Below, piece by piece: positions 2,558 through 59,773 of a DNA stretch of 64,000 nt (its first letter is position 1; every line of letters starts with the position of its first letter). The DNA is taken from the NCBI GenBank assembly GCA_964016885.1, contig OZ024741.1:413912001-413976000 (forward strand). Direction: 5' to 3'. Both the position numbers and the translations under genes were made by a program. This stretch comes from Eledone cirrhosa (Eukaryota). The notes under the pieces were generated by a model. The model made no database searches. It had not been told where the DNA came from and worked only from the letters and a program-made list of their open reading frames with translations.

Positions 2558-2558
2558 C

Positions 2559-2616
<58 letters not shown>

Positions 2617-2874
2617 ATATATATATTATATATATATATATTATATATTATATATATATATATATATTATATATATATATATATATATAATATATATATA
2701 TATATTATATATATATATATTATATATATATATTATATATATATATTATATATATATATATATATTACATATATATATATTATATATATATATATATTAT
2801 ATATATATATATATTATATATATATATATATATTATATATATATATTATATATATATATATATATATAACATAA
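2559..2874. repeat. (TA)n / TAT microsatellite separating two head-to-head RTE copies
   Basis: Directly visible. Confidence 0.97.
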
Positions 2875-2944
2875 CCCCATCCCCCCCCCCGCGCCCCACC
2901 GCTCCCACCCTCCAAACGCAATCCAAAACTTCAGAGTTGGTACC

Positions 2945-5900
2945 ATGAATGTAGGCACCTTAAAGGGTCGCTCTAACGAGGTTGTAGAAATGCTTGAATG
3001 TAAGGAGGTCGATGTTTGTTGTATTCAAAAGACCAGGTGGAGGGGAGGGTCGGCTAGATTCATCGTGGGTAAAGAGCGATGCTATAAGCTTTTCTGGGTG
3101 GGAAATGACAATGGGTTGGGTGGGGTAGGAATCATGGTAGCAGAAAAGTGGGCAGATAAGATAATAGACGTAAATAGAGTGAACGACAGAATAATTAAAA
3201 TAAGACTTGTCCTCAATAAAACTACGGTGACAGTAATATCTGCGTACGCACCCCAATCCGGACTGCCCCGCGCTATAAAAGACAGATTCTACGAGACACT
3301 GATGCTCGCTACCTCCCAAATAACCGACAGTGACTATATAGTTATTGCAGGCGACCTAAATGGTCACGTTGGACAACATTGTGATGGCTATGACGGAATC
3401 CATGGAGGCTATGGGTTCGGTACTAGAAATGAGGAAGGCTCCAGAATCCTGGAATTCTGCGACGCAAATAACTTAACTATCTGTAACACTAACTTCAAAA
3501 AACGAGACAATCACTTGATCACCTATAGATCGGGGGAACACACAAGCCAGGTAGATTATATCCTTACCAGAAGACGTGACAGAGTGTCTGTTGTTAACAC
3601 TAAATCCCACCCCCATGAAGAATTCACCTCCCAACATAGACTGATAATTAGCGACCTCATAGTCAGGACGAGACGTACTAGACAGCGGAAGAGGACTATC
3701 CTCAGGAGAAAAATATGGAAGCTAAAGGACCCCACAGCCAGAAATAAATTTCAAAGCAAATTACTTGACGCTTTCGACAGTAAGGAAGAGCAATTAGAGT
3801 CGTATAATATAGAGGAACAGTGGGAATTCCTGAGAGCAAACCTGCTGACGGCGGCAGACGAAGTCTGTGGCTGGAGCAGGCCTGTAGGTAGGAGGAGAGT
3901 AACATGGTGGTGGAACAGTAAGGTGGAGGAGTCAATTAAGGCCAAAAAGCAGGCTTGGAAAGTATGGCGGGATGGGGGAAGTAGAGAAGACTATCAAGTG
4001 GCCAGGAGGGAAGCTAGGAGACAAGTGTACTTCGCAAGAAGGGAAGCAGAGGAAAGAAAGTTCAAGCATGTTCTACAACGTGAGGACCAAAAACGTGAGG
4101 TGTTCAGGATTGCCAGGCAATGTGTCAAGGAAAACCGTGATATTGTCGGGGAGAAGTGTGTACTTAACGATAATGGCATACTTGCCATCACCGACGCTGA
4201 TAAGAAGGTAGCTTGGAAGTGTCACTACGAAAGGCTTCTAAATGAGGAGAACAAATGGGAGAAAGACAGTCTCCCCCAGATCGATCCAATAGAGGGACCA
4301 GCAGTGTTAGTTGAAGGTAGTATAATAAGTAAGGCAATCAAAGATATGAAGACGGGTAAGGCGGCTGGGCCTTCGGAAATAGTTGCTGAGATGCTGAAGG
4401 CATCTGGTTCGGTGGGACACACCATGGTCACCCGGATAGTTAACCAAGTCGTACAGAATGGGGTTGTTCCGAAGGAATGGCGTAGCAGCATCATCGTTAA
4501 CTGCTATAAGGGAAAAGGAGATGCCCTAGATAGGAGTAACTATAGAGGCATTAAATTAATCGACCAGGTCATGAAGGTCACGGAAAAAGTAATAGCGCAA
4601 CTAATCAGAGAGAGAATTGATCTAGATGAAATGCAGTTCGGGTTTGTGTCAGGTAAAAGTACCACAGACGCTCTTTTCATTGTACGACAACTACAGGAGA
4701 AGTACCTAGCTAAAAGTAAACCCCTATACTTAGCTTTTGTCGACTTGGAGAAAGCCTTCGACAGAGTCCCCCGTTCCATTATCTGGTGGTCTCTTAGAAA
4801 ACTAGGTGTTGACGAATGGCTTGTGAGAGCTATACAAGCCATGTATAAAGAAACAGTCAGTAAGGTTAGAATTAACAAAGAATATAGTGAAGAGTTTAGC
4901 GTAAAAGTTGGTGTCCATCAGGGCTCTGTACTTAGCCCCCTACTATTTATTATTGCCCTTCAGGCTATAACAGAGGAGTTCAAGACCGGCTGCCCATGGG
5001 AACTCCTATACGCAGATGATCTAACGCTCATAGCTGAATCAATGACCGAACTAGAGAAGAAATTCCAAACGTGGAAGCACGGCCTAGAATCAAAAGGCCT
5101 TAAAATTAACCTGGCTAAGACTAAAGTTCTAGTTTGTAGGAAAGAAAATAAGGCGGCGGTCCCATCGGGGAAATGGCCATGCTCAGTGTGTAGGAAAGGC
5201 GTAGGTAGAAACTCCATTTTATGTCCCAAATGCAAAGTATGGGTGCATAAAAGATGTAGTGGGATCACAGGTAAGCTAACTAAGAACATAGATTTTACAT
5301 GTGGCCGGTGCTCTGGTGCAATAAGTAGCAGCAAGTGCCCACAAAATACTAGCTCCTTCAACTGCGCAGAGGGTTCTATAGAAATAGTGGACAGCTTCCG
5401 TTATCTGGGTGACAAAATCAGCAGTGGGGGAGGGTGCTCTGAAAGTACAGTAGCTAGAGTCAGAACTGGATGGAAAAAGTTCAGAGAGCTTATACCACTA
5501 TTAGCCGCTAGAGGGTTCTCCCTAAAAATGAAAGGCAGGTTATACGATGCCTGCATACGAACAGCAATGCTGCATGGCAGTGAGACCTGGGCATTGTGTG
5601 CAGAGGATATACGCAGACTAGAGAGGAACAAAGCTTGCATGCTCCGCTGGATGTGCAATAGTAATATACGTGAACGGCAAAGCATAAACGAACTAAGGAA
5701 AAAATTAGAAATAAGAGGGATCAGATGTTGTTTACTCGAGAGAAGGCTACGTTGGTACGGTCACGTGATGCGCATGAAAGACGACAGCTGTATAACAAAG
5801 TGCAGGGCAATAAAGATAGACGGTAGCCACGGAGTAGGCAGACCCAGAAAAACATGGGACGAGCTGATAAATTCCGACCTCACACGCTTACACCTCTCCA

Positions 5901-5965
5901 AGACAATGTCACTGGACCGAGACCTTTGGCGGTACTCAGTAATAGAGAAGACCCGCCTTACCTAA
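2945..5965 (+). CDS. RTE-clade non-LTR retrotransposon ORF (APE endonuclease + RT with inserted PHD finger), family 1
   Basis: 1006 aa. APE motifs NVGTL, AYAPQ, GDLNGHVG, QVDYIL, QHRL; RT motifs [27 protein letters not shown]; RTE C-terminus RLRWYGHVMR..GRPRKTW. The frame is open upstream (NFRVGT), so the 5' end may be truncated. Confidence 0.95.
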   Translation: MNVGTLKGRSNEVVEMLECKEVDVCCIQKTRWRGGSARFIVGKERCYKLFWVGNDNGLGGVGIMVAEKWADKIIDVNRVNDRIIKIRLVLNKTTVTVISAYAPQSGLPRAIKDRFYETLMLATSQITDSDYIVIAGDLNGHVGQHCDGYDGIHGGYGFGTRNEEGSRILEFCDANNLTICNTNFKKRDNHLITYRSGEHTSQVDYILTRRRDRVSVVNTKSHPHEEFTSQHRLIISDLIVRTRRTRQRKRTILRRKIWKLKDPTARNKFQSKLLDAFDSKEEQLESYNIEEQWEFLRANLLTAADEVCGWSRPVGRRRVTWWWNSKVEESIKAKKQAWKVWRDGGSREDYQVARREARRQVYFARREAEERKFKHVLQREDQKREVFRIARQCVKENRDIVGEKCVLNDNGILAITDADKKVAWKCHYERLLNEENKWEKDSLPQIDPIEGPAVLVEGSIISKAIKDMKTGKAAGPSEIVAEMLKASGSVGHTMVTRIVNQVVQNGVVPKEWRSSIIVNCYKGKGDALDRSNYRGIKLIDQVMKVTEKVIAQLIRERIDLDEMQFGFVSGKSTTDALFIVRQLQEKYLAKSKPLYLAFVDLEKAFDRVPRSIIWWSLRKLGVDEWLVRAIQAMYKETVSKVRINKEYSEEFSVKVGVHQGSVLSPLLFIIALQAITEEFKTGCPWELLYADDLTLIAESMTELEKKFQTWKHGLESKGLKINLAKTKVLVCRKENKAAVPSGKWPCSVCRKGVGRNSILCPKCKVWVHKRCSGITGKLTKNIDFTCGRCSGAISSSKCPQNTSSFNCAEGSIEIVDSFRYLGDKISSGGGCSESTVARVRTGWKKFRELIPLLAARGFSLKMKGRLYDACIRTAMLHGSETWALCAEDIRRLERNKACMLRWMCNSNIRERQSINELRKKLEIRGIRCCLLERRLRWYGHVMRMKDDSCITKCRAIKIDGSHGVGRPRKTWDELINSDLTRLHLSKTMSLDRDLWRYSVIEKTRLT

Positions 5966-13914: not shown

Positions 13915-15087
<1,173 letters not shown>

Positions 15088-15210
15088 GGAGGTGAGTTTT
15101 ATTGTAGTACAATAAAGCAATGCAGATATCGGATAAGAAGCACTCTACAGTTTGTAGGACTGGAGTATACATAATATAAGATCAAAAGATGGTTAAAGGA
15201 GTTCCATGTA

Positions 15211-15277
15211 TTTTATTATGCGCATTTCAAAAACAAACATCATCATGCAATAATATTTGTGTTTTCATCAGATAAAA
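15211..15277 (-). ncRNA. Hammerhead motif (family C), sense copy in PLE 3' terminus
   Basis: TTTTAT-CTGATGA-AAACACAAAT..GTTTGTTTTT-GAAA-TGCGCA-TA-ATAAAA. Confidence 0.8.
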
Positions 15278-16112
15278 CAGGAGAACATGATATGAAGGCT
15301 AAAAAACACTTGTGGATAGTGCAGTTTTAAATCAACATATGAAAAGTGGTTTTAGATTGATGTGTGATATTGGGAAAAATATTTTATTTAGAGAGGGGGG
15401 GTGGAAAGTATGAAAAAGGGAAGGAGATGAGAGGGAGAGATGGGTGATAGAGAGAAAGAGATAGTTTTTATAACTGAGAGGAGATATATTGTTTTACATA
15501 GAGAGGTTGAAAACCGTTGGAAGATAATGTATAAATTAAAAATAAAAAAAAATAAATTAATAAAAAAAATAATAAAAAAATAAAAATTTTGAAAATTAAC
15601 GAAGGGAGGATATGTGCGAGGAAAAAATATTTTATTTAGGGAGGGGGGGGTGGAAAGGATGAAAAAAGGGGGAGGAGATGAGAGTGAAGGTGGAGAGGGA
15701 GAGATGGGTGATAGAGAGAAAGAGATAGTTTTTATAACTGAGAAAAAGATATATAGTTTTACATAGAGAGGTTGGGAACCGTTGGAAGATAATGTATAAA
15801 TTAAAGGAATTTGAAAATTAACGAAGGGAATTTATGTATGAATATAGAGAGAAAAAATAATAATTGTGGATGAATATTCTAACGTCAAAAAAAGAAATGT
15901 ATGTTGATAAGATATTGTGGCAATTTCAAAATTAACGAAGAGAAAAATTATTAAGGTTTGTGTGTAGAAGGATTTGAGAAAAATAATGTGGAGTTAAAGT
16001 TTGTATATTGAAGGAATTGATAATATATGCGAATAAAGAGTTAATATGTATTAATAATGAGTTCGTTGATGGGGAAAAAAAAAAAAATAATAAATTAAGG
16101 ATGAAATTGAGA

Positions 16113-18505
16113 TTAAAAAGATTTATGATAGAGAGAAAAAATAATAATGATTGCGAATGAATATTCTAACGTCAAAACAACAAATGTATATGTTATGATT
16201 TTACAAGGTGGAGATAGAATGAGGGTAATGAGTAAACAAGTATTATAGAGTGTATAATGCCCTTTAAAGTAAGGTAGATGGGTATATTTTAAAGAGGTGT
16301 ATGTATATGTGCCTTTGAGAAAAGATTCTAAATTGATAAAGAATTTGTGAAAAGTTCTATGGAATTTATGCAGGCAGATAGAAAACAAATCTGTACGTCT
16401 ATTTATTATAGAATCTAGGTTAGAGATAATGGTAAATTTTTCATTTAGGCAGAGATTACAGATTTTAGATAGAGAGCTGTTCAAGTATGAGGATGCAGAA
16501 GAAATCTTCTTCCAAAAGATGGTATATTTAATGTTTTTGTCTTTTAAGGACCATATGAGTTCTGAGAGAGCAGTGTTGGTTCTTTTAAGTTTGTATTTGA
16601 AAGATGAATGATGATTATAGAGACGAGCTTTAAAAGAGGTGGAAGTGGAGCCAAAATAGGTGAAGGAATTGGTGCTAGTTATAATTTTACATTCATAAAT
16701 TAAGTTTTTATCGAGACAATGGTTGTTGAGAGGACATTTATTTTTAATGCGGCAGTTGCAATTAGAGAGATTATTAATGAGTGACCTAGTGTTATCTATA
16801 GAAGGAATTGGATTGGAGAAGTTGTTTGCGATAGGAATAATAGGAATAATAGTTTCTTGATTTAGAGTTGGATTATGAACATTTAGCGAAGTTGTGTTTG
16901 ACGTTGTATTTGGGTTTACAGAAGTTAGCCTAGGGTTTACAATGACGTCGGGAGTACTATTACTGTTATTATGAAATTCAATATTGGAAGGAAGAGATTT
17001 AGTATTTAGTATTTTATTGTTGTGTTTAGAGATGATGTTGGAAATATTGGAGGATGTAGAATACGAAAATTTGATGGTGTGTTTGTTAAATATTTTACTA
17101 TAGATATGTGAGGGAGGGAAGCATTTATTTAAGGCACTAAAAAATAATTTAGGAATATTGTTATTAATAGAGATGGAGAAAGGAGCATTATACCAGATTA
17201 TGTTTTTGTATCTAGGTCTTTTATTAAAATTATTGGAATGGTCATGATTAATTATTCTACTGTAAGTTTTTCTAGAATTTGTTTCTTTACTATATTTGAT
17301 TTTATCTGGATAGCCGGCTTTAGAAAGTGCGTTATTATAGTAATTGGCGTTAGCATCAAAGATGTTTTTATTAGAAGATATGTTAGATATTCTTTTTCCA
17401 ATATTATTAACTATAGCATTCTTGATATTGGTAGGATGGTTAGATTTAAAGTTAACATAATTTAGGTTCTCATTGTTTTTATGGTAAGGGTAATATAGGC
17501 CAGTGTCAAGATTAAGAGATACATCCAAGAAATTAGCTAGTTTGATACTATTATCAAATTCAATTTTTAGGTTATGTTGGTTAAAGAGATTACGTATATT
17601 GTTCTTAATAATATTAAGGTTAACTATATTGCAATTTAGGATAGTAAAGAGTCCATCGTCACGATAAATTCCACCGCGAAGTTGAGGAATTTTCCGACTC
17701 AAAGAGTTCAAAATGAAGATACCAATTAAATCAGTCAATTAGGATGAATCGGATGCTCCCATTGTGATGTCGAAGTTGTTAGAGGTATCGGCTCTGGTCC
17801 AATATTCGTTGTTGAACTCTAGGATGGTTTTACGTGCGGTGAGGATGATGTGAAGTTCATCTGTGGTGATGTCAGAATATTTAAGTGCGAAAGATAGAGC
17901 ATTATTGAGAAGTGAAGGCGAAATGGAGGAATAGTAGCTGGCAATATCAAATTGAATAAATTTTAGTTTGTTTTTATTATCCAATTTGTTGAACCAGCCA
18001 ATCACTTCAGAAGTACCAAACCATAAATTTAGGTTCAAAGAAGAGCAATTAGAACTAACCTGTGGGATAATTCTATCCAAGATGGCTTTACTAACAACCC
18101 CCAGATCAGATTTAGAGGGGGCGATTAATCTAACAGGTAGTTCAGTGCGAAAATTGTTTTTGTGATCCTTGAGATTTATCCTCGGAGTTCTTGGGAGGAA
18201 TGGTTCGGTCTTTTTTTCAATGCCAAGTTTTGACATAATCTCATAGGCTTCAAGGTTTATGCATTCTAAATTTTCATGGTTGGTTTTACGATACTTTTTC
18301 CTAAGTTCCTTTAGGATAAGGTTGTTATAATTATCCTTGGAAATACCATATAAGTTATTGGTTTTGTCAGAGTGGACTAAAACATTTTTTGAGGAATTTA
18401 GGTTAGAGATTGTGTTCTTGAGATTTACAAGGTGCTCTTGTCCTTTGTAAGGGTATCTCTTGAATTTAAGATTTTTTATTAATTTAGTTAATTCTTCTTC
18501 GAATT
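16113..18505 (-). pseudogene. Naiad-type PLE RT + GIY-YIG ORF interrupted by one TAA
   Basis: SDKT, IQFDIASYY, TMGASDSS*LTDL, IYRDDG, FLD, CNC..CPL..C, IY..TYFGST, CNLC, CLH. ORFs 17739-18620 and 16113-17738 are in frame. The first ~37 aa of the called ORF derive from the inverted repeat. Confidence 0.9.
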
Positions 18506-18654
18506 GTACTTTTTCATCCTTTCCACCCCCACCCCCCTCTCTAAATAAAATATTTTTCCCAATATCACACATCAATCTAAAACCACTTTTCATATGTTGA
18601 TTTAAAACTGCACTATCCACAAGTGTTTTTTAGCCTTCATATCATGTTCTCCTG

Positions 18655-18721
18655 TTTTATCTGATGAAAACACAAATATTATTGCATGATGATGTTTGTT
18701 TTTGAAATGCGCATAATAAAA
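18655..18721 (+). ncRNA. Hammerhead motif (family C), copy in inverted repeat
   Basis: Same motif readable on the plus strand. Confidence 0.8.
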
Positions 18722-18753
18722 TACATGGAACTCCTTTAACCATCTTTTGATCT

Positions 18754-18803
<50 letters not shown>

Positions 18804-18805
<2 letters not shown>

Positions 18806-21800
18806 AAGGCGGGTAAAATTCCCGAGATCCATGGACGAGTTCTCTCCAGCGGTCTCTGTCCCTCATTATCGCTGCCATATCCTGCATCTCCAACAGACCA
18901 GTGTCTGTCCTTAGGGCATCAACATATGTTAACCTTGGTCTTCCTCTTCTAGTGTGTACATGTAGGGGCTCCCAAAGGAGCACTGAGTGCAATGTCAACT
19001 CTGGATGTCGGTGAGCATGTCCAGCCAACCTCAGTCTCCTCTGTGTCACATTTGAGCTGACTTTTGGGATGCTCCCATACAGCTCTGAGTTTTTCATCCT
19101 CAGTGTATACTGATTAATGTTCAGAGCCATCCTCAGCATTCTCGTGTAGCACCCATCCACCATCTGAGTGAGTCTCTTGGTCAGTGTCCAAGTCTCAGAC
19201 CCATACAGCAGCACAGACTCCACTACAGCAATGAAGAGGCGGATTTTCAGGTCTCTACGAAGGTCCGACTTCCACACCGATCTCAAGCTGTGACACGCCG
19301 CCCAGGCCTTGCTCTTCCTCTCAACCACATCATCCTCCGTATTCCCAATCTTTGCTCCCAAATACAGGAAGTCCTCAACCAATTCCAGCGGCTTCCCGCC
19401 TACATTAGTGATCCCCTCTGGCTTCTCAACATTCTCTACCAGATATTTTGTTTTAGTCTCATTCATTCTCAGCCCCACACTCATCGACATAGTCTCAACC
19501 TCCCGCATCAAATCCTCTGCCTCCTTCACTGTATTTGTCACCAAAACTATGTCGTCGGCAAATTCAGCATCCGATACCTTTTTCGCCCCAACTCTCCTGC
19601 TCTGAGCCGGTGCTACAGTAAAGCCAGTGTCCTGGTGTTTCTCCAGTGCAAGGCGCATACAATAGTCCACTACGATGATAAAAAGGTAGGGAGCCAATGT
19701 ATCTCCCTGGAGCACTCCAGCCAGTATCTCAAAGAACTCTGTCATCCTATCAGGTGTAATGACTTGGGCTTTGGTGTTGGTGTAGAGCAGTGATATCAGG
19801 TCCACTATCCTCTTGGGGATTCCATAAGCCTGTAAGATCTTCATCAGGCAGTAACGGTCCACAGAATCAAAGGCCTTCCTAAAGTCAATGAAAACCATGA
19901 CCGCAGGAAGGCACTTTGCTCTAGCTCCCTCTAATATCCTCCTCAGCATCAGGATGTGACTGGTGGTTGATCTTCCATCTCTGAAGCCGTTCTGGTTGTC
20001 CCTGAGCTTCTTCTCCATCTCAGGCTGGATCCTGTTAAGAATCATCCTGTTGAGGGTCTTTGCCACAAGTGATGTCAGTGAGATCCCCCGGTAGTTGTTG
20101 GTGTTAGAGAGATCTCCCTTCTTTGGCACTGGGACGATGTTACTGATCCTCCACTGATTCGGGGCAACTCCTTTCTCCAGTGCCCCGTTACAGAACCCCA
20201 AGATGATATCATCAAAATCACACCTCCTCATCACCTCTGATGCCACTCCATCTTCTCCATGAGCCTTGCCCTCCTTGATCTTCTTCTTGGCTCTCTGAAG
20301 CTCCTCTCTGGTGAAGGGCTCTGTCTCAACATCCAGTTCCTCAAACAGCCGCCTGATCTCCCCAGTGCTCTGGGCTGTGGAGGGTGGCTCTCCTAGTAGG
20401 GTCCTAAAATGGTCTAGCCATTTCTTCTTCCTATCCTCGGGCCCCGTTCCCTGGATCTGACTCGAACACCTTTTCTTCCTCCCTGTGATCTCGTTGATGA
20501 TCATCCAGCTCTCCTTACATCCAGATCTGTCAACCGCTCTCTCCACACTTCTGATCTTCTCTATCAGTGCCTCCTCTCTGACCTCAGTGTAAGCGATACA
20601 GAGCTCTTCCCTCATCACCTCCACAGTCTCCATCCTCTCCTCCGTAGGATCAGCATAGAATTGGTCCCTGGCAGCTTTCAGGTGTTCTCTGGCTGCACAC
20701 ACTTTTGGGTTTGCAGAGCTGACGTGCTTCCCTTTGTTCTTTTTCCTCGGCACCAGGGTTTCACTTGCTTTCGCCACTGCATTGGTGAAGTGCCCGTACC
20801 TCCTCGTCACACTCTCCTCAGTCCATCCAATCTCTCTCTCCTCTGACTCTCCACACAGAGCACTAAACCTGTTTCTCACTTCCACTGTGAACCTCTCCTG
20901 TAGCTTATCATCTTCCTTGAAAGCTCCCCAGTCATAGATTGTTCTCCGGGGCTGAGCCTTGCTCTTTCTTAAGCTCACGCGGACCTCACTCATAACAAGC
21001 CGGTGGTCACTACCCAGTGTACTGAAATAGCTGTATGGTTCCGTGTTCAGAACACTATTCCGCCACTTTTTCCTCACCAGAATGAAATCAATCTGGGACT
21101 TGGACAGGTGCATATCTGAGATGTAGGTCCACATCTTCCCCAGATTCTTCCTAAACCTTAGGTTGGTCGCCATCAAGTTCGCCTCAAGCAGGGTGTCTCT
21201 CAGTAGTCTTCCATTTCGGTTGGTGTTGTTATGGAAGTACCAGCAAGGATCTTCACTGCCCTCCTTACTCAGATGTGCATTGAAGTCCCCCAAAACAAGC
21301 AGGATATTGTGTGCCTGAGTGGTGTTGACAGCTCTACACACCTCCTCATGGAACTCCTCGGCATTCACATCACTGTCCCCCTCGGTTGGACTATAGGCTG
21401 AGATGACTGTCAGTCTTGGGTTTCCATTGAAGGTCACCCTCAACACTCGCGGGGAGATAGGCATTATTTCCATCACCAACAGATTGGTTTTTGCACTGAA
21501 CACAAAACCCACTCCTCCTACTGCAGCATTTGTTGTGTTCTTCACTGCCGATGTAGTGATGAGCTGGCTCTTCCTCCCGATCATCACACTCCTCACGGGC
21601 TCATCGTGTAGAATCCTGTGTTCTTGGATCGCAAGTATCTGTATACCACTCTCCTCGAACAGATGTCCCAACTCCTCTCTCTTCTCCAGCGTTCGAATAG
21701 TCCTCACATTCAAAGTGCCCATTTTGATGGCTCTTCTGCAGGACAAAACTGCATTCTTTATATTTGTCTCAGAGACAGCTGATCCATCATCCACTGGCCC

Positions 21801-21911
21801 TCTCTGTGGCTCTAAGCCAGCAGAGTCATAATGACCAGGCTGCTCCTTGACAGTGTAATTAGGGGCTCTAACCCTAGTGCTGTTAGATCGACTCTCCATA
21901 TTTCTTTTCAA
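18804..21911 (-). CDS. RTE-clade LINE ORF (APE + RT, no PHD), family 4, apparently intact
   Basis: 1035 aa; GTLNVRT, IQEHR, GDFNAH, QIDFIL, SDHR; FIDFRKAFDSV, QGDTLAP, FADD, FLYLG, RLRLAGH. 5' UTR extends to ~22112; (TA)n at both ends. Confidence 0.94.
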
Positions 21912-22107
21912 AGGCTAACAATACCTTACCAGCGCCACTCGAATAAGGTAGTTATTTAACCCATAAATGGAGCCCTAACAGGTACTACCACCCCGGGCCA
22001 GGGCAGACCTGGGAGTCATGACAACTAAGGGGTAACTCCACATTCCCCACATCTCCTGAACTCCCGAACTGGAGCCTTGCCACTGGATGTAGTTTAATGT
22101 CATACCC

Positions 22108-22152
<45 letters not shown>

Positions 22153-22436
22153 AAATAACGAAACGAAATTAAATTTCGTTTCGCTTCTAACTCACTTTTG
22201 TATGACTGACGCTTAAACAATTAAGTTAAAGTGTACATCTACAAATGTATACGGAAGTATTAGTATGCATATCAATACACACATGTATACATATGTACAT
22301 GTACTCAGCTTTTCACTAGACACTTTACAGTGAGTGTCAGCTAGTCTGTATGTAACCACACAGACGGACCGGGTTTTAGAGTCATACGGGTTTTCAAGGA
22401 AACACATTTCCTCTATTCTCCAGAGGGCCAGACAGG

Positions 22437-22481
22437 AATATTGGACTAGTTTCGATGTTATTACATCTCATCAGCAATATT
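22437..22481 (-). ncRNA. Minimal type I hammerhead (family D)
   Basis: AATATTG-CTGATGA-GATG-TAATAA-CATC-GAAA-CTAG-TC-CAATATT; canonical core, GUC site. Confidence 0.92.
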
Positions 22482-22716
22482 TACCCATCTTCCGGCTTCT
22501 CTGGAGAATTGTAAAAGCGTCAGTCATACAAAAGTGAGTTAGAAGCGAAACGAAATTTAATTTCGTTTCGTTATTTGTTTTTATCGTTTCCGCTGAACCG
22601 GTGCGTACAATGACTCACGTTCTATGCAAATTGGTCTACCCACTACTAATTTTCATAGAAAAAGCATATAACGATATGTGCTTTTACAATTCTCCAGAGA
22701 AGCCGGAAGATGGGTA

Positions 22717-22761
22717 AATATTGCTGATGAGATGTAATAACATCGAAACTAGTCTAATATT
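22717..22761 (+). ncRNA. Minimal type I hammerhead (family D)
   Basis: AATATTG-CTGATGA-GATG-TAATAA-CATC-GAAA-CTAG-TC-TAATATT. Confidence 0.92.
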
Positions 22762-22979
22762 CCTGTCTGGCCCTCTGGAGAATAGAGGAAATGTGTTTCC
22801 TTGAAAACCCGTATGACTCTAAAACCCGGTCCGTCTGTGTGGTTACATACAGACTAGCTGACACTCACTGTAAAGTGTCTAGTGAAAAGCTGAGTACATG
22901 TACATATGTATACATGTGTGTATTGATATGCATACTAATACTTCCGTATACATTTGTAGATGTACACTTTAACTTAATT

Positions 22980-23042
<63 letters not shown>

Positions 23043-23159
23043 TCTGGCTCCTCTATGGAAAAAAAAAACAAATTTGCTCCTATACAAGGGGCAGGTCCCA
23101 TTTGTGTCATTATTTACCATTTTTTCCCATTTGTTTTTTTTTTCCATAGAGGAGCCAGA

Positions 23160-23256
<97 letters not shown>

Positions 23257-23258
<2 letters not shown>

Positions 23259-24335
23259 TTCTGGCTCCTCTATGGAAAAAAAAAACAAATGGGAAAAAAT
23301 GGTAAATAATGACACAAATGGGACCTGCCCCTTGTATAGGAGCAAATTTGGGAATAGAATAGAAAGAACTAGGAATAAGGTTACTAGAATAAACTCATGG
23401 TATGATAGCAATAAATACCAGAGTGTAATGTTCATCGATACAACCCCTAGAGGTGAATTAGCTTACAAATTTAGAAGGGCCCTAGATAAACATAAACTCA
23501 ATATTAACATAGTAGAAAGACCAGGTTCCTCCATAAAAACACTTATTAGCAATACATACCCTTTTCAAAGACCTCCCTGTATAGATAAGAAATGTATAAT
23601 CTGTAAATTAAGCCCCCGTATTAACTGTAAAACTAGAAATGTAGTATATAGCATAAGATGTACTGAAGGACAATGTAGAGATAAGAATATAGTGTACATA
23701 GGTGAGACAGCTCGTAGTATAGGGGAACGGATAAATGAACACTGGCGAGAGCTTCAAGCTAGTAAAGACTCATCTGTGCTCTACCAACATGCTAAAATAG
23801 AACATAAGGGTAAATTAGAGAACATAGAAATAAAAATAGAATCTACACACAGAAAAGACACAATGTTTAGACAAATCACAGAGGCAATAAACATAAATGA
23901 ACTCCAACCAAAATTAAATAGAAAACATGAATGGAACAGCAACATCACAACTTACAATTAAGGACAAAATGAAAACACACACGCACATAGAACAAACAAC
24001 CAACCAGTAACATGTAAATAAACAAATATAAACACACACAGACACCCGGATGTAACACATGTGCAAACTAAGCACACAACACACACAAAAACAAGATGGC
24101 GTAGGACAGAACAAAGGAGAGGCACAAAAACAAAGAAAAGAATCCCCAGTCACTGAAGAGGTCACAGAATGTGTGACGAAAGAACTTTGACAATATATAA
24201 ACAATCATCTGGTTGTGGAACCAACCAACCAACCGGAAATTTGTAAATTTATAAATTTATTATAATAAATTGAAGTGAAAGCATCTGGTGCGTGTGTTTC
24301 TTATTGGCAACATGACCCTCCCAAAGTATAACAAT
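23257..24335 (+). mobile_element. 5'-truncated PLE (non-Naiad): Cys-rich linker + GIY-YIG endonuclease (ORF ends 23961) + 3' terminus
   Basis: CIDKKCIIC..NC..NVVYSIRC..YIGETARSIGERINEH..QH..EH..RQITEA..LNRKHEW. Confidence 0.88.
24149..24191 (+). ncRNA. Variant hammerhead (family B) in PLE 3' terminus
   Basis: GTCA-CTGAAGA-G-GTCAC-AGAATGT-GTGAC-GAAA-GAACTT-TGAC; one extra G before stem II, 2-bp stem III. Confidence 0.65.
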
Positions 24336-24435
24336 ATATATATATATATACGTATATATATATGTGTATATATATATATATGTATATATGCATATATATA
24401 TATACGTATATATATGTGTATATATATATATATGC

Positions 24436-26833: not shown

Positions 26834-27695
26834 TATCAGTGAAAATTTTCTTTTCTTTGCTTCATATATATATATTATATATACTTGTCCGCCATTGCAA
26901 AAGGCCATAAATTCAAAATTTTGAAGAGAGAGGAAAAGAGAGAAGTGATCTATGAACTTGTAACATCTCACTGATCCCCCCGTCACCACAATAACAATAA
27001 CGCCTACACTCGCTCCCCACCATCACCACATTACTCTAAGGTCGCTGTCCTGTCCCCTGTTGACATACTGCTGACTCTCTTTTGATGTATGTATGTGTAT
27101 ATACATATGTGTATGTGTGTGTATATGTATATCTCAGTGGATGCGACCAGATTTCAACACAGCAACAACAGCAGCAACACCAACAACAACAACAACAGCA
27201 ACAACACCATCGTCTGTGTTGAATGTGTGTGTATGTATTTGTATATATGCGACAGCAATAACAGCATCAACACCATTGTCTGCAGCAACAGCAGCAGTGA
27301 AATGAAGGACAACAACTACAGCACCAACAACTGCCACCACCATCACTGACCATCCACCACCACCACGCTGATACCATACACCACCACCACACTGACACCA
27401 TCCACCACCGCCATTACCAGCGTAAACAAACAATTATTATTGTTATTGTTATTATATACAAGCCGAACTGGACTGGGAAAGGTCAACAGTTGACATGATA
27501 GTGATTTTGACGATTTTGACTTTGATTTTGATTTTGTATCAGTACTGTCGGTAATATATGTATATATATATATATGTTTGTGAGTTGTGTGTGTGATTGT
27601 ATGCATGAATGAGTGTTGGTATGTGTGGTTGTGGTTTGTATGCATGAGTATTAGTGTGTGAGTCGTGTCAATAGGTTTTTTTTTTTTTTTTTTTT

Positions 27696-30600
27696 AAATG
27701 ACCATGCTGTAAAATGGAGGGGTAGAGAGGGCCCTTGAGTCTAGTAAGACATCCTCTCTAGTGCTGGTGGCACAAATAAAAGCACCCAGTCCATGCTGTA
27801 AAGTGGCGCTGGTGTTAGGAAGGGCATCCAACCAGTGTATCAATGCCAAAAAGCTTATCAGCACAGCAACAAAACAGCATAGAAAAATATGAAGACGTCG
27901 CATCTCAGAGTTGCAACACTTAATGTTGGCACTCTCAGAGGTAGATCTGCTGAAAGCGGAGATGCTGGAGAGAAGGCAGGTGGATGTGTGCTGCGTGCAA
28001 GAGGTGAGATGGAGAGGTGCCTCTGCGAGACTAGTCGTAGGCAAGCGTCTTAGCTATAAGCTATTCTGGGTAGGTAAGGATGATGGGTTAGGGGGAGTAG
28101 GCATTTTCCTGGCTGAGAAATGGATCAATAAGACAATAGAGGTTGTTCGAGTTAGTAATCGAATAATTAAGCTTAGATTAGTTGTAGGTAGGAGACTACT
28201 GACAATCATCTCGGTCTATGCTCCCCAAGCAGGCCTAGGCAAAGATGAGAAAGACTGCTTTTATGAGCAACTTTTGCAAACAACCACAATGACAGAGGAC
28301 GGAGACATCGTTATGCTAGCAGGAGACTTCAATGGTCATGTTGGACAGCTCCAGGATGGTTACACTGGGGTACATGGTGGGCACGGTTACGGTTCAAGAA
28401 ATGAAGAAGGAGTGATACTTCTTGAATTTTGTGATGCAAGTACATTGACTATTTGCAACACAAACTTCCAGAAACCTGCCAATCACCTAATAACCTACAA
28501 ATCTGGTGAGCACATAAGCCAGATTGACTTCCTGCTAGTTAGGCAGCGGGACAGGCAGATAGTGTCTAATACCAAGGCATACCCTGGGGAAGAATGTACC
28601 CCACAGCATAGGTTAGTTGTTAGTGATATCTCAGTAAGCAAGAGATGGAATGAGACATATAGGAAGGTGTGGAGAAGAAAGGTCTGGAAGCTAAAAGACC
28701 TTTCACTAAAATTCAAATTTAGGAAAGCCCTTCAAGATGTATATGACGAAAAAGAAGACGATTTAGAGACGTATGACATAGATAATAACTGGAAGTTCTT
28801 ACGTGACAACTTGCTGAAGGCTACTGATGAAACCTGTGGCTGGAGCAGAGCTCCAACCAGACAGAGAGTGACCTGGTGGTGGAACAGCAGTGTAGATAAG
28901 GCTATTAGAGACAAAAGACTAGCATGGAAGGCTTGGAATAAGGGTGGGAGTAGGGAAGAATATACAGCCACTAAGAGAGAAGCTAGACGTCAGGTGTACT
29001 TAGCACGCAGGGAGGCAGAGAGTAGGAGGTTTGCCAATGTTCTGCGACGGGAAGATCAGAGGCGTGCGGTGTTCCACATTGCAAGGCAGTGTGTCAATGC
29101 AAATCAGGATGTTGTTGGTGATAAATGTGTCCGGGATGATGCCGGTGTACTTAGTGTCACGAATGACCAGAAAAAGGAGGCCTGGAAATGTCATTATGAG
29201 AGACTGATGAATGTGGAGAACGAATGGGAGAGAGAGAAATTACCCTTGGTAGATCCGACAGAGGGACCAGCTATTGAGATTGACGAATATAGGGTCCAAG
29301 AGGCGATTAGGGAAATGAAAAATGGTAAGGCGGCCGGACCATCGGGAATAGTTGCTGAGATGCTGAAGGCATCAGGGGACGTAGGCACTAAACTGGTTGC
29401 ACGCATAATCAATCAGGCTATATATGGTGGTGTCATACCCAAAGACTGGTGCAGCAGTATTCTCATAAATTGCTACAAAGGTAAAGGGGATGCTTTGGAG
29501 AGGAGCAATTATAGGGGTATAAAACTGATAGATCAGGTTATGAAAGTGGCAGAAAGGATTTTAGCACAACTAATTAGAGAAAGGGTCAAACTAGATGAGA
29601 TGCAGTTTGGTTTTGTGCCTGGGAAGAGTACAACAGATGCCCTCTTCTTGGTGAGACAAATGCAAGAGAGGTTCTTAGAGAAGAATAAGCCACTATACTT
29701 AGCCTTTGTTGACCTAGAGAAGTCCTTTGATAGGGTACCCCGATCTGTCATCTGGTGGTCCCTAAGGAAGCTGGGTGTTGAGGAATGGCTTCTAAGGACT
29801 GCAAACTTTGTACAGAGGTACTCTCAGTAAAGTCAGGGTAGGAATGGAGTTTAGTGAGGAATTCCAGATACAAGTAGGAGTACATCAGGGTTCGGTCCTC
29901 AGCCCGCTCTTGTTCATTATAGTCCTCCAAGCCATAACAGAGGAGTTTAAGACTGGCTGTCCATGGGAACTTCTCTATGCTGACGATCTGGCTCTTATGG
30001 CAGAATCAGTAGAGGAGCTAGAGAATAAATTCCGGCTATGGAAACAGCAGTTGGAAGCAAGAGGACTGAGAGTAAATCTAGCTAAGACAAAAGTGTTGAT
30101 GAGTAGAAAAGAGGACAAAACCCTGATTCCGTCAGGGAAATGGCCATGTTCGATATGCAGAAAAGGAACTGGCATAAATTCTATAAAATGCACACAATGT
30201 AGGTCCTGGGTACACAAGAGATGTAGCGGGATAGCAGGCAAACTAACAGGTAGGGAGAAATATGTATGCAGTAGATGTACAGGGAAATTAGACAGTAGAA
30301 GTCGCACTGATAGACACATTTTTCAAATGCGAGAGGGCGCTATAGAAGTGGTGGATAGCTTCCGGTACCTAGGAGATCAGATTAGCATGGGAGGAGGGTG
30401 TTCCGAGGCCATAGTATCTAGAATAAGGACGGGTTGGAAGAAGTTTAGGGAGCTGCTTCCTCTGTTGACGAAGAAGGGTTTCTCCCTGCGTACGAAAGGC
30501 CGGTTGTATGATGCCTGTGTGAGGAGCGCGATGCTGCATGGTAGTGAGACATGGGCAGCTACCGCAGAAGATATGCGACGGCTGGAGAGAAATGAGGCAA

Positions 30601-30982
30601 GCATGCTCCGTTGGATGTGCAGTGTAAATGTGCGTGAACGACCCAGCATAAATGTGTTGAGAGAGAAACTGTGTCTGAGAGGGATAGAATGTAGTGTACG
30701 GGAGAGGAGACTGAGGTGGTATGGACATGTGATGCGCATGGAGGATGACCGATGGGTGAAGAAGTGCCAGGAAATGCCAGTTGAAGGAAGACGTGGTAGA
30801 GGTAGACCACGAAAAACATGGGCGGAGGTGGTGAGAACAGACCTCAGATCATTGAAGCTCACGGTGGAGATGACGAGGGACCGTGACGAGTTGAGAGATG
30901 CTGTGCTGAATAAGACCCGTCCCACCCTTGCAAGCAGGGAAAAGCGGACGTAAAATGATGATCATGATGATGATGATGATGA
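27696..30982 (+). pseudogene. RTE family 2 (PHD-containing), full length with two small frameshifting deletions
   Basis: Near-identical reverse complement of 37170-40462; 2-bp deletions near 27956 and 29800 split the ORF (27911-29830, 29808-30953). Confidence 0.93.
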
Positions 30983-31008
30983 TATATATGCATATATATA
31001 TATGTATA

Positions 31009-36727: not shown

Positions 36728-37166
36728 CCCCAAAATGATTATCTAAAAATCTTCCATCATAATTTTATATAAGAAATTTTCTTAATACCAGATAAACGAG
36801 AAAATTAGTTATATTACTAATTTAGAAATATAACAAATATAATTTAGTAATATATTACTAAGTTATAAAACTAGTTTAGTAATATAACTAGTTTAGTAAT
36901 ACATTACTAAACTAGTTATACAACTGGTTTAGTAATATATTACTAAATTAGTTATACAACTGGTTTAGTAATATATTACTAAATTAGTTATACAACTAGT
37001 TTAGTAATATATTACTAAATTAGTAATATATTACTAAATTAGTAATATTACTAAATTAGTTGTATTACTAAATACCTCCAAATTCTTGCTTATTTTTGTA
37101 ATATACTCAAAATCATGTAAAAAGATGGTAACAAAAGGATAAAAGACCATATATTTATATACATAT

Positions 37167-37200
<34 letters not shown>

Positions 37201-37201
37201 T

Positions 37202-40200
37202 TTACGTCCGCTTTTCCCTGCTTGCAAGGGTGGGACGGGTCTTATTCAGCACAGCATCTCTCCACTCGTCACGGTCCCTCGTCATCTCCACCGTGAGCTT
37301 CAATGATCTGAGGTCTGTTCTCACCACCTCCGCCCATGTTTTTCGTGGTCTACCTCTACCACGTCTTCCTTCAACTGGCATTTCCTGGCACTTCTTCACC
37401 CATCGGTCATCCTCCATGCGCATCACATGTCCATACCACCTCAGTCTCCTCTCCCGTACACTACATTCTATCCCTCTCAGACACAGTTTCTCTCTCAACA
37501 CATTTATGCTGGGTCGTTCACGCACATTTACACTGCACATCCAACGGAGCATGCTTGCCTCATTTCTCTCCAGCCGTCGCATATCTTCTGCGGTAGCTGC
37601 CCATGTCTCACTACCATGCAGCATCGCGCTCCTCACACAGGCATCATACAACCGGCCTTTCGTACGCAGGGAGAAACCCTTCTTCGTCAACAGAGGAAGC
37701 AGCTCCCTAAACTTCTTCCAACCCGTCCTTATTCTAGATACTATGGCCTCGGAACACCCTCCTCCCATGCTAATCTGATCTCCTAGGTACCGGAAGCTAT
37801 CCACCACTTCTATAGCGCCCTCTCGCATTTGAAAAATGTGTCTATCAGTGCGACTTCTACTGTCTAATTTCCCTGTACATCTACTGCATACATATTTCTC
37901 CCTACCTGTTAGTTTGCCTGCTATCCCGCTACATCTCTTGTGTACCCAGGACCTACATTGTGTGCATTTTATAGAATTTATGCCAGTTCCTTTTCTGCAT
38001 ATCGAACATGGCCATTTCCCTGACGGAATCAGGGTTTTGTCCTCTTTTCTACTCATCAACACTTTTGTCTTAGCTAGATTTACTCTCAGTCCTCTTGCTT
38101 CCAACTGCTGTTTCCATAGCCGGAATTTATTCTCTAGCTCCTCTACTGATTCTGCCATAAGAGCCAGATCGTCAGCATAGAGAAGTTCCCATGGACAGCC
38201 AGTCTTAAACTCCTCTGTTATGGCTTGGAGGACTATAATGAACAAGAGCGGGCTGAGGACCGAACCCTGATGTACTCCTACTTGTATCTGGAATTCCTCA
38301 CTAAACTCCATTCCTACCCTGACTTTACTGAGAGTACCTCTGTACAAAGTTTGCACTGTCCTTACAAGCCATTCCTCAACACCCAGCTTCCTTAGGGACC
38401 ACCAGATGACAGATCGGGGTACCCTATCAAAGGCCTTCTCTAGGTCAACAAAGGCTAAGTATAGTGGCTTATTCTTCTCTAAGAACCTCTCTTGCATTTG
38501 TCTCACCAAGAAGAGGGCATCTGTTGTACTCTTCCCAGGCACAAAACCAAACTGCATCTCATCTAGTTTGACCCTTTCTCTAATTAGTTGTGCTAGAATC
38601 CTTTCTGCCACTTTCATAACCTGATCTATCAGTTTTATACCCCTATAATTGCTCCTCTCCAAAGCATCCCCTTTACCTTTGTAGCAATTTATGAGAATAC
38701 TGCTGCACCAGTCTTTGGGTATGACACCACCATATATAGCCTGATTGATTATGCGTGCAACCAGTTTAGTGCCTACGTCCCCTGATGCCTTCAGCATCTC
38801 AGCAACTATTCCCGATGGTCCGGCCGCCTTACCATTTTTCATTTCCCTAATCGCCTCTTGGACCCTATATTCGTCAATCTCAATAGCTGGTCCCTCTGTC
38901 GGATCTACCAAGGGTAATTTCTCTCTCTCCCATTCGTTCTCCACATTCATCAGTCTCTCATAATGACATTTCCAGGCCTCCTTTTTCTGGTCATTCGTGA
39001 CACTAAGTACACCGGCATCATCCCGGACACATTTATCACCAACAACATCCTGATTTGCATTGACACACTGCCTTGCAATGTGGAACACCGCACGCCTCTG
39101 ATCTTCCCGTCGCAGAACATTGGCAAACCTCCTACTCTCTGCCTCCCTGCGTGCTAAGTACACCTGACATCTAGCTTCTCTCTTAGTGGCTGTATATTCT
39201 TCCCTACTCCCACCCTTATTCCAAGCCTTCCATGCTAGTCTTTTGTCTCTAATAGCCTTATCTACACTGCTGTTCCACCACCAGGTCACTCTCTGTCTGG
39301 TTGGAGCTCTGCTCCAGCCACAGGTTTCATCAGTAGCCTTCAGCAAGTTGTCACGTAAGAACTTCCAGTTATTATCTATGTCATACGTCTCTAAATCGTC
39401 TTCTTTTTCGTCATATACATCTTGAAGGGCTTTCCTAAATTTGAATTTTAGTGAAAGGTCTTTTAGCTTCCAGACCTTTCTTCTCCACACCTTCCTATAT
39501 GTCTCATTCCATCTCTTGCTTACTGAGATATCACTAACAACTAACCTATGCTGTGGGGTACATTCTTCCCCAGGGTATGCCTTGGTATTAGACACTATCT
39601 GCCTGTCCCGCTGCCTAACTAGCAGGAAGTCAATCTGGCTTATGTGCTCACCAGATTTGTAGGTTATTAGGTGATTGGCAGGTTTCTGGAAGTTTGTGTT
39701 GCAAATAGTCAATGTACTTGCATCACAAAATTCAAGAAGTCTCACTCCTTCTTCATTTCTTGAACCGTAACCGTGCCCACCATGTACCCCAGTGTAACCA
39801 TCCTGGAGCTGTCCAACATGACCATTGAAGTCTCCTGCTAGCATAACGATGTCTCCGTCCTCTGTCATTGTGGTTGTTTGCAAAAGTTGCTCATAAAAGC
39901 AGTCTTTCTCATCTTTGCCTAGGCCTGCTTGGGGAGCATAGACCGAGATGATTGTCAGTAGTCTCCTACCTACAACTAATCTAAGCTTAATTATTCGATT
40001 ACTAACTCGAACTACCTCTATTGTCTTATTGATCCATTTCTCAGCCAGGAAAATGCCTACTCCCCCTAACCCATCATCCTTACCTACCCAGAATAGCTTA
40101 TAGCTAAGACGCTTGCCTACGACTAGTCTCGCAGAGGCACCCCTCCATCTCACCTCTTGCACGCAGCACACATCCACCTGCCTTCTCTCCAGCATCTCCG

Positions 40201-40270
40201 CTATTTCAGCAGACCTACCTCTGAGAGTGCCAACATTAAGTGTTGCAACTCTGAGATGCGACGTCTTCAT
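37202..40270 (-). CDS. RTE-clade LINE ORF (APE + RT with PHD finger), family 2, intact
   Basis: 1022 aa; [49 protein letters not shown]; (GAT)n tail at 37170-37200; 5' UTR to ~40462. Confidence 0.96.
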   Translation of the reverse strand: MKTSHLRVATLNVGTLRGRSAEIAEMLERRQVDVCCVQEVRWRGASARLVVGKRLSYKLFWVGKDDGLGGVGIFLAEKWINKTIEVVRVSNRIIKLRLVVGRRLLTIISVYAPQAGLGKDEKDCFYEQLLQTTTMTEDGDIVMLAGDFNGHVGQLQDGYTGVHGGHGYGSRNEEGVRLLEFCDASTLTICNTNFQKPANHLITYKSGEHISQIDFLLVRQRDRQIVSNTKAYPGEECTPQHRLVVSDISVSKRWNETYRKVWRRKVWKLKDLSLKFKFRKALQDVYDEKEDDLETYDIDNNWKFLRDNLLKATDETCGWSRAPTRQRVTWWWNSSVDKAIRDKRLAWKAWNKGGSREEYTATKREARCQVYLARREAESRRFANVLRREDQRRAVFHIARQCVNANQDVVGDKCVRDDAGVLSVTNDQKKEAWKCHYERLMNVENEWEREKLPLVDPTEGPAIEIDEYRVQEAIREMKNGKAAGPSGIVAEMLKASGDVGTKLVARIINQAIYGGVIPKDWCSSILINCYKGKGDALERSNYRGIKLIDQVMKVAERILAQLIRERVKLDEMQFGFVPGKSTTDALFLVRQMQERFLEKNKPLYLAFVDLEKAFDRVPRSVIWWSLRKLGVEEWLVRTVQTLYRGTLSKVRVGMEFSEEFQIQVGVHQGSVLSPLLFIIVLQAITEEFKTGCPWELLYADDLALMAESVEELENKFRLWKQQLEARGLRVNLAKTKVLMSRKEDKTLIPSGKWPCSICRKGTGINSIKCTQCRSWVHKRCSGIAGKLTGREKYVCSRCTGKLDSRSRTDRHIFQMREGAIEVVDSFRYLGDQISMGGGCSEAIVSRIRTGWKKFRELLPLLTKKGFSLRTKGRLYDACVRSAMLHGSETWAATAEDMRRLERNEASMLRWMCSVNVRERPSINVLREKLCLRGIECSVRERRLRWYGHVMRMEDDRWVKKCQEMPVEGRRGRGRPRKTWAEVVRTDLRSLKLTVEMTRDRDEWRDAVLNKTRPTLASREKRT

Positions 40271-41411
40271 ATTTTTCTATGCTGTTTTGTTGCTGTGCTG
40301 ATAAGCTTTTTGGCATTGATACACTGGTTGGATGCCCTTCCTAACACCAGCGCCACTTTACAGCATGGACTGGGTGCTTTTATTTGTGCCACCAGCACTA
40401 GAGAGGATGTCTTACTAGACTCAAGGGCCCTCTCTACCCCTCCATTTTACAGCATGGTCATTAAAAAAAAAAAAAAAAAAAAAAAGGAAACTTAGTGACA
40501 CGACTCACACACTAATACTCATGCATACAAACCACAACCACACATACCAACACTCATTCATGCATACAATCACGCACACCACTCACAAACATATATATAT
40601 ATACATATATTACCGACAGTACTGATACAAAATCAAAATCAAAGTCAAAATCAAAATCAAAATCAAAATCGTCAAAATCACTATCATGTCAACTGTTGAC
40701 CTTTCCCAGTCCAGTTCGGCTTGTATATAATAATATAATATATACATATATATTCATACATATATATACATACATACATATATATATACATACATATATA
40801 TACACATACATACATATATATACACATACATACATATATATACATACATATACATACATACATATATATACATGCATATATAGACATATCATCATCATCA
40901 TCATTTCATTTTACGTCCGCTTTTCCCTGCTTGCAAGTGTGGGACTGGAACTGATTCTGGCTTGATTTCTACAGCTGGATGCCCTTCCTAACACCAACCT
41001 CATTTACAGTGAGTGCTGGGTGCTTTTTTTTTGCCGTAGCACCTCCACGACCACTTTGCAGTGGAATGATATGAACCCCAGTCCCTATCATCTCATTTCT
41101 ACAGCTGAGTAAACTGGATCAATGTGAAATAAAGTGTCTTGCTCAAGGAAACAACACATCACCCGGTCTGAGAGTTGAACTTACAACCTTTCGATTGCAA
41201 GGCCAATGCTCTAACCACTGAGCCATATACATACATATATATACACATACATATATATACATATATATACATACATACATATACATACATACATATATAT
41301 ATATACATACATATATATATACATACACATATATATACATACATATATATATATATACATACATACATATACATACATATATATATATATACATACATAT
41401 ATATACAGACA

Positions 41412-55063: not shown

Positions 55064-55135
55064 TGTTGTCTGAAGAGATAGTATCTGACGATTAACGATT
55101 ATATAACAGATACCATTGAAATGCATATAACAGCA
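55064..55135 (+). ncRNA. Isolated hammerhead-like motif (family F)
   Basis: TGTTGT-CTGAAGA-GATAGTATCTG..CAGATACCATT-GAAA-TGCATA-TA-ACAGCA; several G-U pairs. Confidence 0.55.
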
Positions 55136-59416: not shown

Positions 59417-59425
<9 letters not shown>

Positions 59426-59715
59426 AGAACAAAAGATGGTTAAAAGAGTTCCTTGTATTTTATTATGCGCATTTCAAAAACAAATATCATCATGCAATAA
59501 TATTTGTGTTTTCATCAGATAAAACAGGAAGACATGATATGAAGATTAAAAAACATGATATTTGTTTTTGAAATGCGCATAATAAAATACATGGAACTCT
59601 TTTAACCATCTTTTGTTCTTATATATTATGTATACTCCAGTCCTACAAACTGTAGAGTGCTTCTTATCCGATATCTGCATTGCTTTATTGTACTACAATA
59701 AAACTCACCTCCTAC
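59417..59715. mobile_element. Solo fold-back of the family C PLE terminus (HHR 59458-59524 minus)
   Basis: Homologous to 15085-15305; ~59417-59490 is inverted at ~59555-59628. Confidence 0.85.

Positions 59716-59773
<58 letters not shown>

Follow-up and report, generated by a model that had tools for sequence, protein, structure and literature searches.

How does a short non-coding repeat come to stand in a genome as two head-to-head arms of overlapping content, and what kind of template do such arms record? The question is raised by a locus in a 64,000-nt stretch of contig OZ024741.1 from Eledone cirrhosa (the window, meaning the whole stretch analyzed, to which plain coordinates refer). A preliminary description divided this locus into two segments, Z and W, noted that its left part reads on the minus strand as W followed directly by the first ~66 nt of Z, and explained the resulting W-to-Z junction by a tandem or circular template of ~468 nt (W-Z-W) whose 5' part had been inverted during insertion.

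Structure of the locus

The fold-back layout of the locus was confirmed. Read on the minus strand from 22518 to 22149, the left arm consists of W (22680-22984) followed directly by 22516-22580, and the two copies are identical at 369 of 370 positions, the sole mismatch being a T at 22755 where the left arm has a C. The inverted repeats measure 305 nt (22214-22518 versus 22680-22984). Minor corrections concern the boundaries: Z begins at 22516 instead of 22517, the monomer is 469 nt long (22516-22984) instead of ~468 nt, and 65 nt of Z, not ~66, are present in the left arm before (TA)n takes over. The hammerhead motif that had been placed in W is indeed found there, with one core in the W of each arm (Table 1).

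Table 1. Features of the two-armed insertion at window positions 22113-23039.
Feature	Position	Strand	Detail
Left (TA)n target microsatellite	22113-22148 (run to 22149)		
Left arm ("tail" arm), W plus first 65 nt of Z	22149-22518	-	Ends at unit positions ~66-69 (outer) and 165 (inner)
Tail (unit positions 1-65), flanked by the two fixed 3' end sites	22149-22213	-	
Type I hammerhead motif, left-arm copy	22422-22492	-	Core from 22474; predicted cut after 22444
Inner junction, 4-nt microhomology common to both arms	22515-22518		
Right arm (tail-less arm), one whole 469-nt unit	22515-22984	+	Outer end at unit position 469
Z: tail with long hairpin, then block conserved with sister family B	22516-22679	+	Hairpin at 22543-22572
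W: holds hammerhead, ends at tail-less 3' site	22680-22984	+	
Type I hammerhead motif, right-arm copy	22706-22776	+	Core 22724-22730; predicted cut after 22754
Right (TA)n target microsatellite	22985-23039 (run from 22983)		

The 469-nt unit has a GC content of 0.37, its longest stop-to-stop frame is 75 codons even if the unit is circularized, and its fold is far more stable than those of shuffled sequences (z = -8.75). Two W alleles, at 22925 and 22954, co-occur genome-wide only in the two arms of this locus. Since both flanks are pure (TA)n, a target site duplication (TSD) is unreadable here. The locus is a real, young insertion of a high-copy retrozyme family.

Copy number and tandem arrays

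A search of the animal's own 3.0-Gb genome returned at least 336 matches, many of them exactly 469 nt apart, with 38 of 850 candidates scored. The exact tail-end motif occurs 2,307 times genome-wide, and the ends of the family thus number at least 2,307; the exact motif of the tail-less end, a pattern specific to the young subfamily, occurs 319 times. More than 2,000 insertions of this non-coding 469-base repeat, the window locus among them, are present in the genome, and subfamilies of the repeat are 85 to 99% identical to the window unit.

A genome search for the W-to-Z junction in other copies had been suggested as a check, on the reasoning that a junction confined to this locus would indicate a one-off local rearrangement. 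Full units were found to recur at 469-nt spacing at many loci, in tandem arrays of period 469. Since this spacing is exact, the W-to-Z junction is the ordinary junction between units; it occurs family-wide, and the proposal of a tandem or circular template with a monomer of about this length stands. The junction is also present in a contig of an independent public run (X4), the kind of which is unspecified, so that it shows presence only. Runs X4 and X5 yielded low-depth contigs of 499 and 497 nt, approximately one unit plus 30 bases; both runs are labeled with other organisms, and the contigs could be carry-over or come from related species.

Arms reach 10.3 and 6.2 units in the two-armed locus L044, and single arrays of 14-16 or more units were observed at L125:987-8001, L121, L127 and L168. 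Higher-order repeats, i.e., duplication after insertion, are present in L121, L125 and L127 and rule out array length as proof of rolling, while L110 is a mosaic. At L125, the higher-order repeat spans ~7 units and looks like a retrozyme array turning into a satellite. An older and apparently very abundant sister family (family B) was found in the flanks of fetched loci, with a unit of ~471 nt (L164:5576-6728; also L083, L137, L142, L151, L152, L034 and L065) and the same two fixed ends. Both families share the ribozyme and the block right after the tail, which may be a protein-recognition region.

Hammerhead motif and class membership

All core positions of a type I hammerhead are present in both arms, where stem I is extended and helix III is minimal and palindromic. 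Rfam HH9 matches the arms with E values of 1.5e-4 and 6.8e-6, both under the gathering score, and an Rfam scan of the 64-kb window gave nothing at gathering level; Rfam microRNA matches were set aside as low-complexity chance hits. Stems I and II carry compensatory changes across 14 sequences of the 469-nt family (A) and sister family B, with 18 of 56 predicted pairs changed on both sides, a count taken over related sequences. Unit positions 262-269 (22777-22784), which belong to the lower strand of the extended ribozyme stem, form a recurrent mutation hot spot; one change there perfects the pairing with the opposite strand, which suggests templated correction.

Judged by its sequence, the 469-nt family belongs to the animal non-LTR retrozymes (Cervera & de la Pena 2020, PMC7229834; Li, Clavereau & Pollet, bioRxiv 10.64898/2026.07.22.740005), agreeing with this class in every testable feature: a type I hammerhead in each unit, head-to-tail tandem units, absence of coding sequence, GC below 50%, TSDs of more than 4 bp and no LTRs, the outer ends of the insertions having no long terminal direct repeats. 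As described in these two reports, animal retrozymes likewise have a small non-coding tandem unit with a type I hammerhead and a stable fold, TSDs of this size, and a tendency to co-occur with Penelope-like elements. The unit is slightly above the 150-450 bp given in PMC7229834 and within the 51-972 bp given in bioRxiv 10.64898/2026.07.22.740005. In its short palindromic helix III it is similar to the axolotl HHR_Amex1 type, which is described as cleaving better as a dimer; only one of nine Xenopus dimers tested was active (bioRxiv 10.64898/2026.07.22.740005). Circular RNA and cleavage have been shown for published retrozymes, whereas the present family is known from DNA. Both reports propose mobilization by Penelope-like elements with circRNA templates, as a hypothesis drawn from co-occurrence and from terminal-repeat similarity.

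The insertions additionally display features of Penelope-type insertion, namely an inverted 5'-truncated copy, a one-sided tail and a microsatellite target. The unit was nevertheless rejected as an autonomous Penelope-like element because it contains no ORF, and the reverse transcriptase (RT) and GIY-YIG ORFs found here belong to other families.

Two fixed ends and their pairing

Mapping of the arms covered the window and 96 fetched loci (L031-L067 without L032, and L070-L129), giving 99 records; L032, a segmental duplicate of L031, was left out of all tallies. Sixty-six records are head-to-head and two-armed, while 33 are single. The inverted two-arm form is therefore the commonest form of the family, and not an addition to its basic design as had been supposed. 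Inner ends are scattered over the unit, whereas outer ends lie at unit positions 66-70 (tail) or 460-1 (tail-less), ~69 nt apart. The short piece of Z that closes the left arm of the window locus is accordingly a fixed second 3' end, comparable to a Penelope-type "tail", and no random breakpoint.

The two kinds of end are paired. Among the 66 two-armed records, 56 combine a tail with a tail-less end, one combines two tails, none combines two tail-less ends, six have one end elsewhere and three are edge-cut. Eleven copies (L111-L120 and L084) had been fetched as known pairs, so the 27 copies chosen by similarity alone form the fair subset; 23 of these are tail plus tail-less, one is tail plus tail, none is a tail-less pair and three have one end elsewhere. 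Within this similarity-only subset, same-type pairs make up 1 of 24 (binomial p = 1.5e-6 against an independent 50:50 choice), and the single case, L034, was counted even though 35 of 469 positions differ between its arms and it could represent two events. Over the first 121 Mb of contig C1, a head-to-head tail end lies within 2.5 kb of 14 of the 20 tail-less ends listed, and no same-type pair within that distance is among the matches listed; one tail-tail pair within 10 kb on this contig is two separate insertions. Nine of 30 apparently single arms are accompanied by a short stub (7-25 nt), in every case of the opposite type. At 19 loci picked by allele, seven of nine pairs are tail plus tail-less, the other two having one end elsewhere.

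This end-pairing rule is not private to the 469-nt family and holds in three other families here. For the GIY-YIG element that neighbors the window locus, 36 loci inspected by eye comprised 11 mixed pairs, six with one end elsewhere, five edge-cut and no same-type pairs. Eight two-armed copies of sister family B included four mixed and no same-type pairs, the rest being cut or decayed, and both copies of a second Penelope-like family in the window have mixed ends.

TSDs of ~12 bp were read at seven loci with impure flanks (L036, L048, L053, L060, L062, L123 and L182). TA-like sequence abuts 147 of the 155 outer ends, tail or tail-less, that have enough flank; the target of L182 is not (TA)n and has microhomology with both end sites. 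Both arms have the orientation of cDNA growing inward from the 3' ends of the target which, together with the TSD, gives the geometry of double priming.

Several other origins were weighed against this architecture. We assign next to no credence to an origin by local rearrangement of the DNA, by a DNA transposon of the fold-back type or by an artifact of assembly: (TA)n tracts and inverted duplications are frequent in the window, as such an origin would have it, but the same fixed ends recur at dozens of unlinked loci, accompanied by TSDs, nested haplotype lineages and covarying ribozyme stems. A fold-back or MITE transposon was rejected in addition on the form of its ends, which unlike terminal inverted repeats are no mirror images (the offset between them is ~69 nt in 56 of 57 resolved pairs), and on the variation in arm length (58-4850 nt).

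The inversion of the 5' part of a W-Z-W template, as first proposed, is not supported in that form: the arms overlap in content and do not partition one linear template. This bears on L1-style twin priming, in which a chance internal primer would divide a linear W-Z-W RNA between a 3' fragment and an inverted 5' fragment. Twin priming has as its signature a TSD around two inverted fragments, with a junction formed by microhomology or end joining (PMC2837659), all of which is shared by the present insertions, and a few tail arms do end at about tail length (60, 64 and 65 nt). However, L1 products have an internal deletion and a poly(A)-primed end (PMC2837659), whereas here the arms overlap, both exceed one unit in 26 of the 56 tail plus tail-less insertions, the two internal starts are fixed and not left to chance, there is no poly(A) tail, and the target is (TA)n. 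Two arms are moreover the rule in the 469-nt family, unlike in L1 twin priming (PMC2837659). The insertions were therefore not classed as L1 twin-priming products, and this mechanism appears very improbable, the fixed ends and the overlap already contradicting it at most loci.

Another possible route would make the first arm by target priming and the second by self-priming of a folded-back cDNA or by priming on an antisense template. A self-priming model has been argued for the inverted repeats of Penelope (PMC3846280), and palindromic junctions, in which both inner ends lie at the same unit position, occur at L035, L047, L093, L087 and L105. In most insertions, however, the inner ends of the two arms are unrelated, and both outer ends match the target, with a TSD. 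In addition, a fold-back copy of the tail arm could at most reach the length of that arm less its tail, a limit that the tail-less arm surpasses in 24 of the 56 tail plus tail-less insertions, the window locus included. Self-priming is contradicted for those 24 loci unless all of them grew after insertion, and we consider it improbable overall.

Nature of the template

If both arms were primed from the target, the next question is what they copied. Both arms run across the ribozyme cut site in 45 of the 56 tail plus tail-less insertions. Inner ends fall at this site in 5 of 132 cases compared to 5.9 expected, i.e., without enrichment, and none of 286 crossings has an indel there. A cleaved linear monomer therefore cannot have been the template without seamless jumping. 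A C>T change at the cut site in four insertions was rejected as a ligation scar, as it is no higher than other hot spots such as 262-265.

Haplotypes were compared in 83 young insertions comprising ~279 unit-equivalents, with L032, L034, L056, L060, L067 and L167 left out. For 27 lineage alleles, all units that cover the position have the allele in 180 of 199 carrier insertions, and five of the exceptions sit at an A-run indel. Twenty-two alleles are fixed in a single sampled insertion, 14 of them across both arms, and no mosaic pair of alleles is common to two insertions among the 83. The mark of L058 is found genome-wide only in the four units of that locus. The fixed lineage alleles point to a single-unit template or bottleneck. 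Six alleles were checked genome-wide: two proved to be lineage markers, present at 7 and 22 loci, and two others turn up one more time each, on different haplotypes. L110 was rejected as the source of the L063 deletion, which is present in two L110 units of another haplotype, as was a second locus with the L118 allele, which recurs once, in another subfamily. No source array with an allele in one unit only was found, and the sources may be absent from the assembly.

Alleles fixed in one arm only were observed at L169 (position 70, 3 of 3 units), L112 and L053, and the arms of L129 differ at lineage marker 294; these one-arm differences fit two sister RNAs or later homogenization. The 295 single-unit alleles indicate that arrays gain unit-private changes, and the 14-unit L168 is heterogeneous. 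Clear in-register cross-arm mosaics are rare (L093 and L118).

It is conceivable, though we think it rather unlikely, that the same double priming took place on an uncleaved linear multimer or on two sister transcripts, with homogeneity arising from young, uniform arrays and gene conversion. The main substrate in vitro is unprocessed RNA (PMC11167929), the ORF-bearing element follows the same end rule with nothing to indicate a circular template for it, and arm-restricted alleles and local homogenization do occur. A linear multimer is harder to reconcile with arrays that have unit-private changes and yet show no common mosaics, with the fixation of the lineage alleles, and with the rarity of in-register cross-arm mosaics. 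A monomeric circle thus appears to be distinctly the better account compared to a linear multimer, whereas one RNA and two sister RNAs fit the haplotype data alike, and these data cannot separate them.

Candidate helper and neighboring elements

A Penelope-like element with a C-terminal GIY-YIG domain lies next to the insertion at 23284-24337 (+), its GIY-YIG part at 23350-23958, and a copy with a 995-aa ORF was found at L160:3037-6024. Its cysteine motif suggests that this element may belong to clade Neptune. It has two 3' ends 59 nt apart, a one-sided tail of 59 nt and a 3' UTR with a hammerhead-like motif. A first-look search gave 37,801 candidates for this element genome-wide, and the (TA)n at its end is occupied by several retrozyme copies. 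By signature only, it is a candidate helper. Comparison of its 3' UTR, tail and downstream block with the unit gave scores no better than shuffles, and the three to five tail-end-site bases common to both were too few to count. When the fetched loci were searched with a profile built from families A and B, no Penelope-like ORF had a homologue next to it, and no helper with a homologous terminal region was seen in the window or the fetched loci, which sample a small share of the Penelope-like families of the genome.

A second Penelope-like family is present at 15030-18766 and 59424-59768, with ORF pieces at 16113-18629 on the minus strand and hammerhead motifs at 15271, 18661 and 59518; both copies are two-armed, with a tail of ~85 nt on one arm only. 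An 830-aa Penelope-like ORF with no Pfam match lies at 47973-50465 (+), and a further hammerhead-like motif at 55070 (+). An inverted duplication at 23040-23350, with arms of 141 nt that are 97% identical, is centered on (TA)n and takes in a 5' piece of the neighboring Penelope-like fragment. The window also holds a nest of APE-endonuclease LINEs (1-5965, 18804-21914, 27449-31004 and 37148-40733) with intact or near-intact ORFs of ~1,030 aa and several inverted or direct duplications of kilobase size.

A double-priming model and its relation to known systems

The account that we regard as probable is that both target ends prime reverse transcription on one monomeric, probably circular RNA, with a Penelope-like RT/GIY-YIG protein acting in trans and insertion into (TA)n. 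By analogy with other members of the class, tandem copies would be transcribed and the hammerheads would cut out monomers to be ligated into circles. An enzyme would make a staggered cut, ~12 nt apart, in AT-rich DNA, as the TSDs record. One 3' end would then prime at unit position ~69 and the other at ~464-469, flanking the tail hairpin; the fixed ends and their pairing are the observed part of this step. Each reverse transcription would run a variable distance, and the arms show that this often exceeds one round and passes through the ribozyme cut site; runs of such length would need strand displacement or two sister RNAs. The cDNA ends would be joined by short microhomology or end joining, as seen at the junctions, to give head-to-head arms, and arrays could later grow by local duplication, as some loci show. 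More tentatively, and with slightly less than even confidence, we suggest that a Penelope-like enzyme, probably a dimer, grips the retrozyme circle at the tail hairpin with one cut strand to each side, and that two strand-displacing rolling-circle reverse transcriptions proceed simultaneously.

The tail of Penelope-like elements is often found at one end only (Craig et al. 2021, PMC8557442; Arkhipova et al. 2013, PMC3846280), and the origin of inverted, one-sided-tail insertions is described as unresolved (PMC8557442). Unlike the Penelope-like insertions in these accounts, the 469-nt family has no ORF, a tail of ~69 nt compared to 30-40, and multi-unit arrays in both arms. A purified Penelope-like protein was reported to cut and extend both strands and to start at two internal sites flanking the tail (Frangieh et al. 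2024, PMC11167929). Extension of both strands, two internal starts and AT-rich targets are shared between the 469-nt family and the Poseidon element PAc of that report, for which sequence 3' of the start sites is required (PMC11167929). However, PAc displays no strand difference in start site in vitro, whereas the ends described here pair strictly, and its start sites are without homology to the cut DNA, whereas those of the 469-nt family have short target microhomology (PMC11167929). The PAc assays also used linear RNA and preferred unprocessed RNA (PMC11167929). The class and the end features were already known. Head-to-head arms, two fixed ends and their pairing are not described in the main texts of the two retrozyme reports (PMC7229834; bioRxiv 10.64898/2026.07.22.740005); literature searches, in which subscription titles were thinly covered, found no retrozyme or Penelope element with a twin-priming or head-to-head model, and the end-pairing rule and the haplotype evidence were not found in print.

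With thousands of young, near-identical insertions, this family allows paired ends and within-locus haplotypes to constrain the mechanism of Penelope-type insertion. It bears on two questions, namely how Penelope-like inverted insertions arise and whether Penelope-like enzymes reverse transcribe retrozyme circles. The 469-nt RNA is small enough to be circularized and tested in vitro against the near-intact 995-aa Penelope-like ORF from the same genome. If the rolling-circle proposal is true, these insertions would document, in the genome, retrotransposition from circRNA templates, and the inverted structure with a one-sided tail seen in Penelope-like elements would in general be caused by asymmetric double priming.
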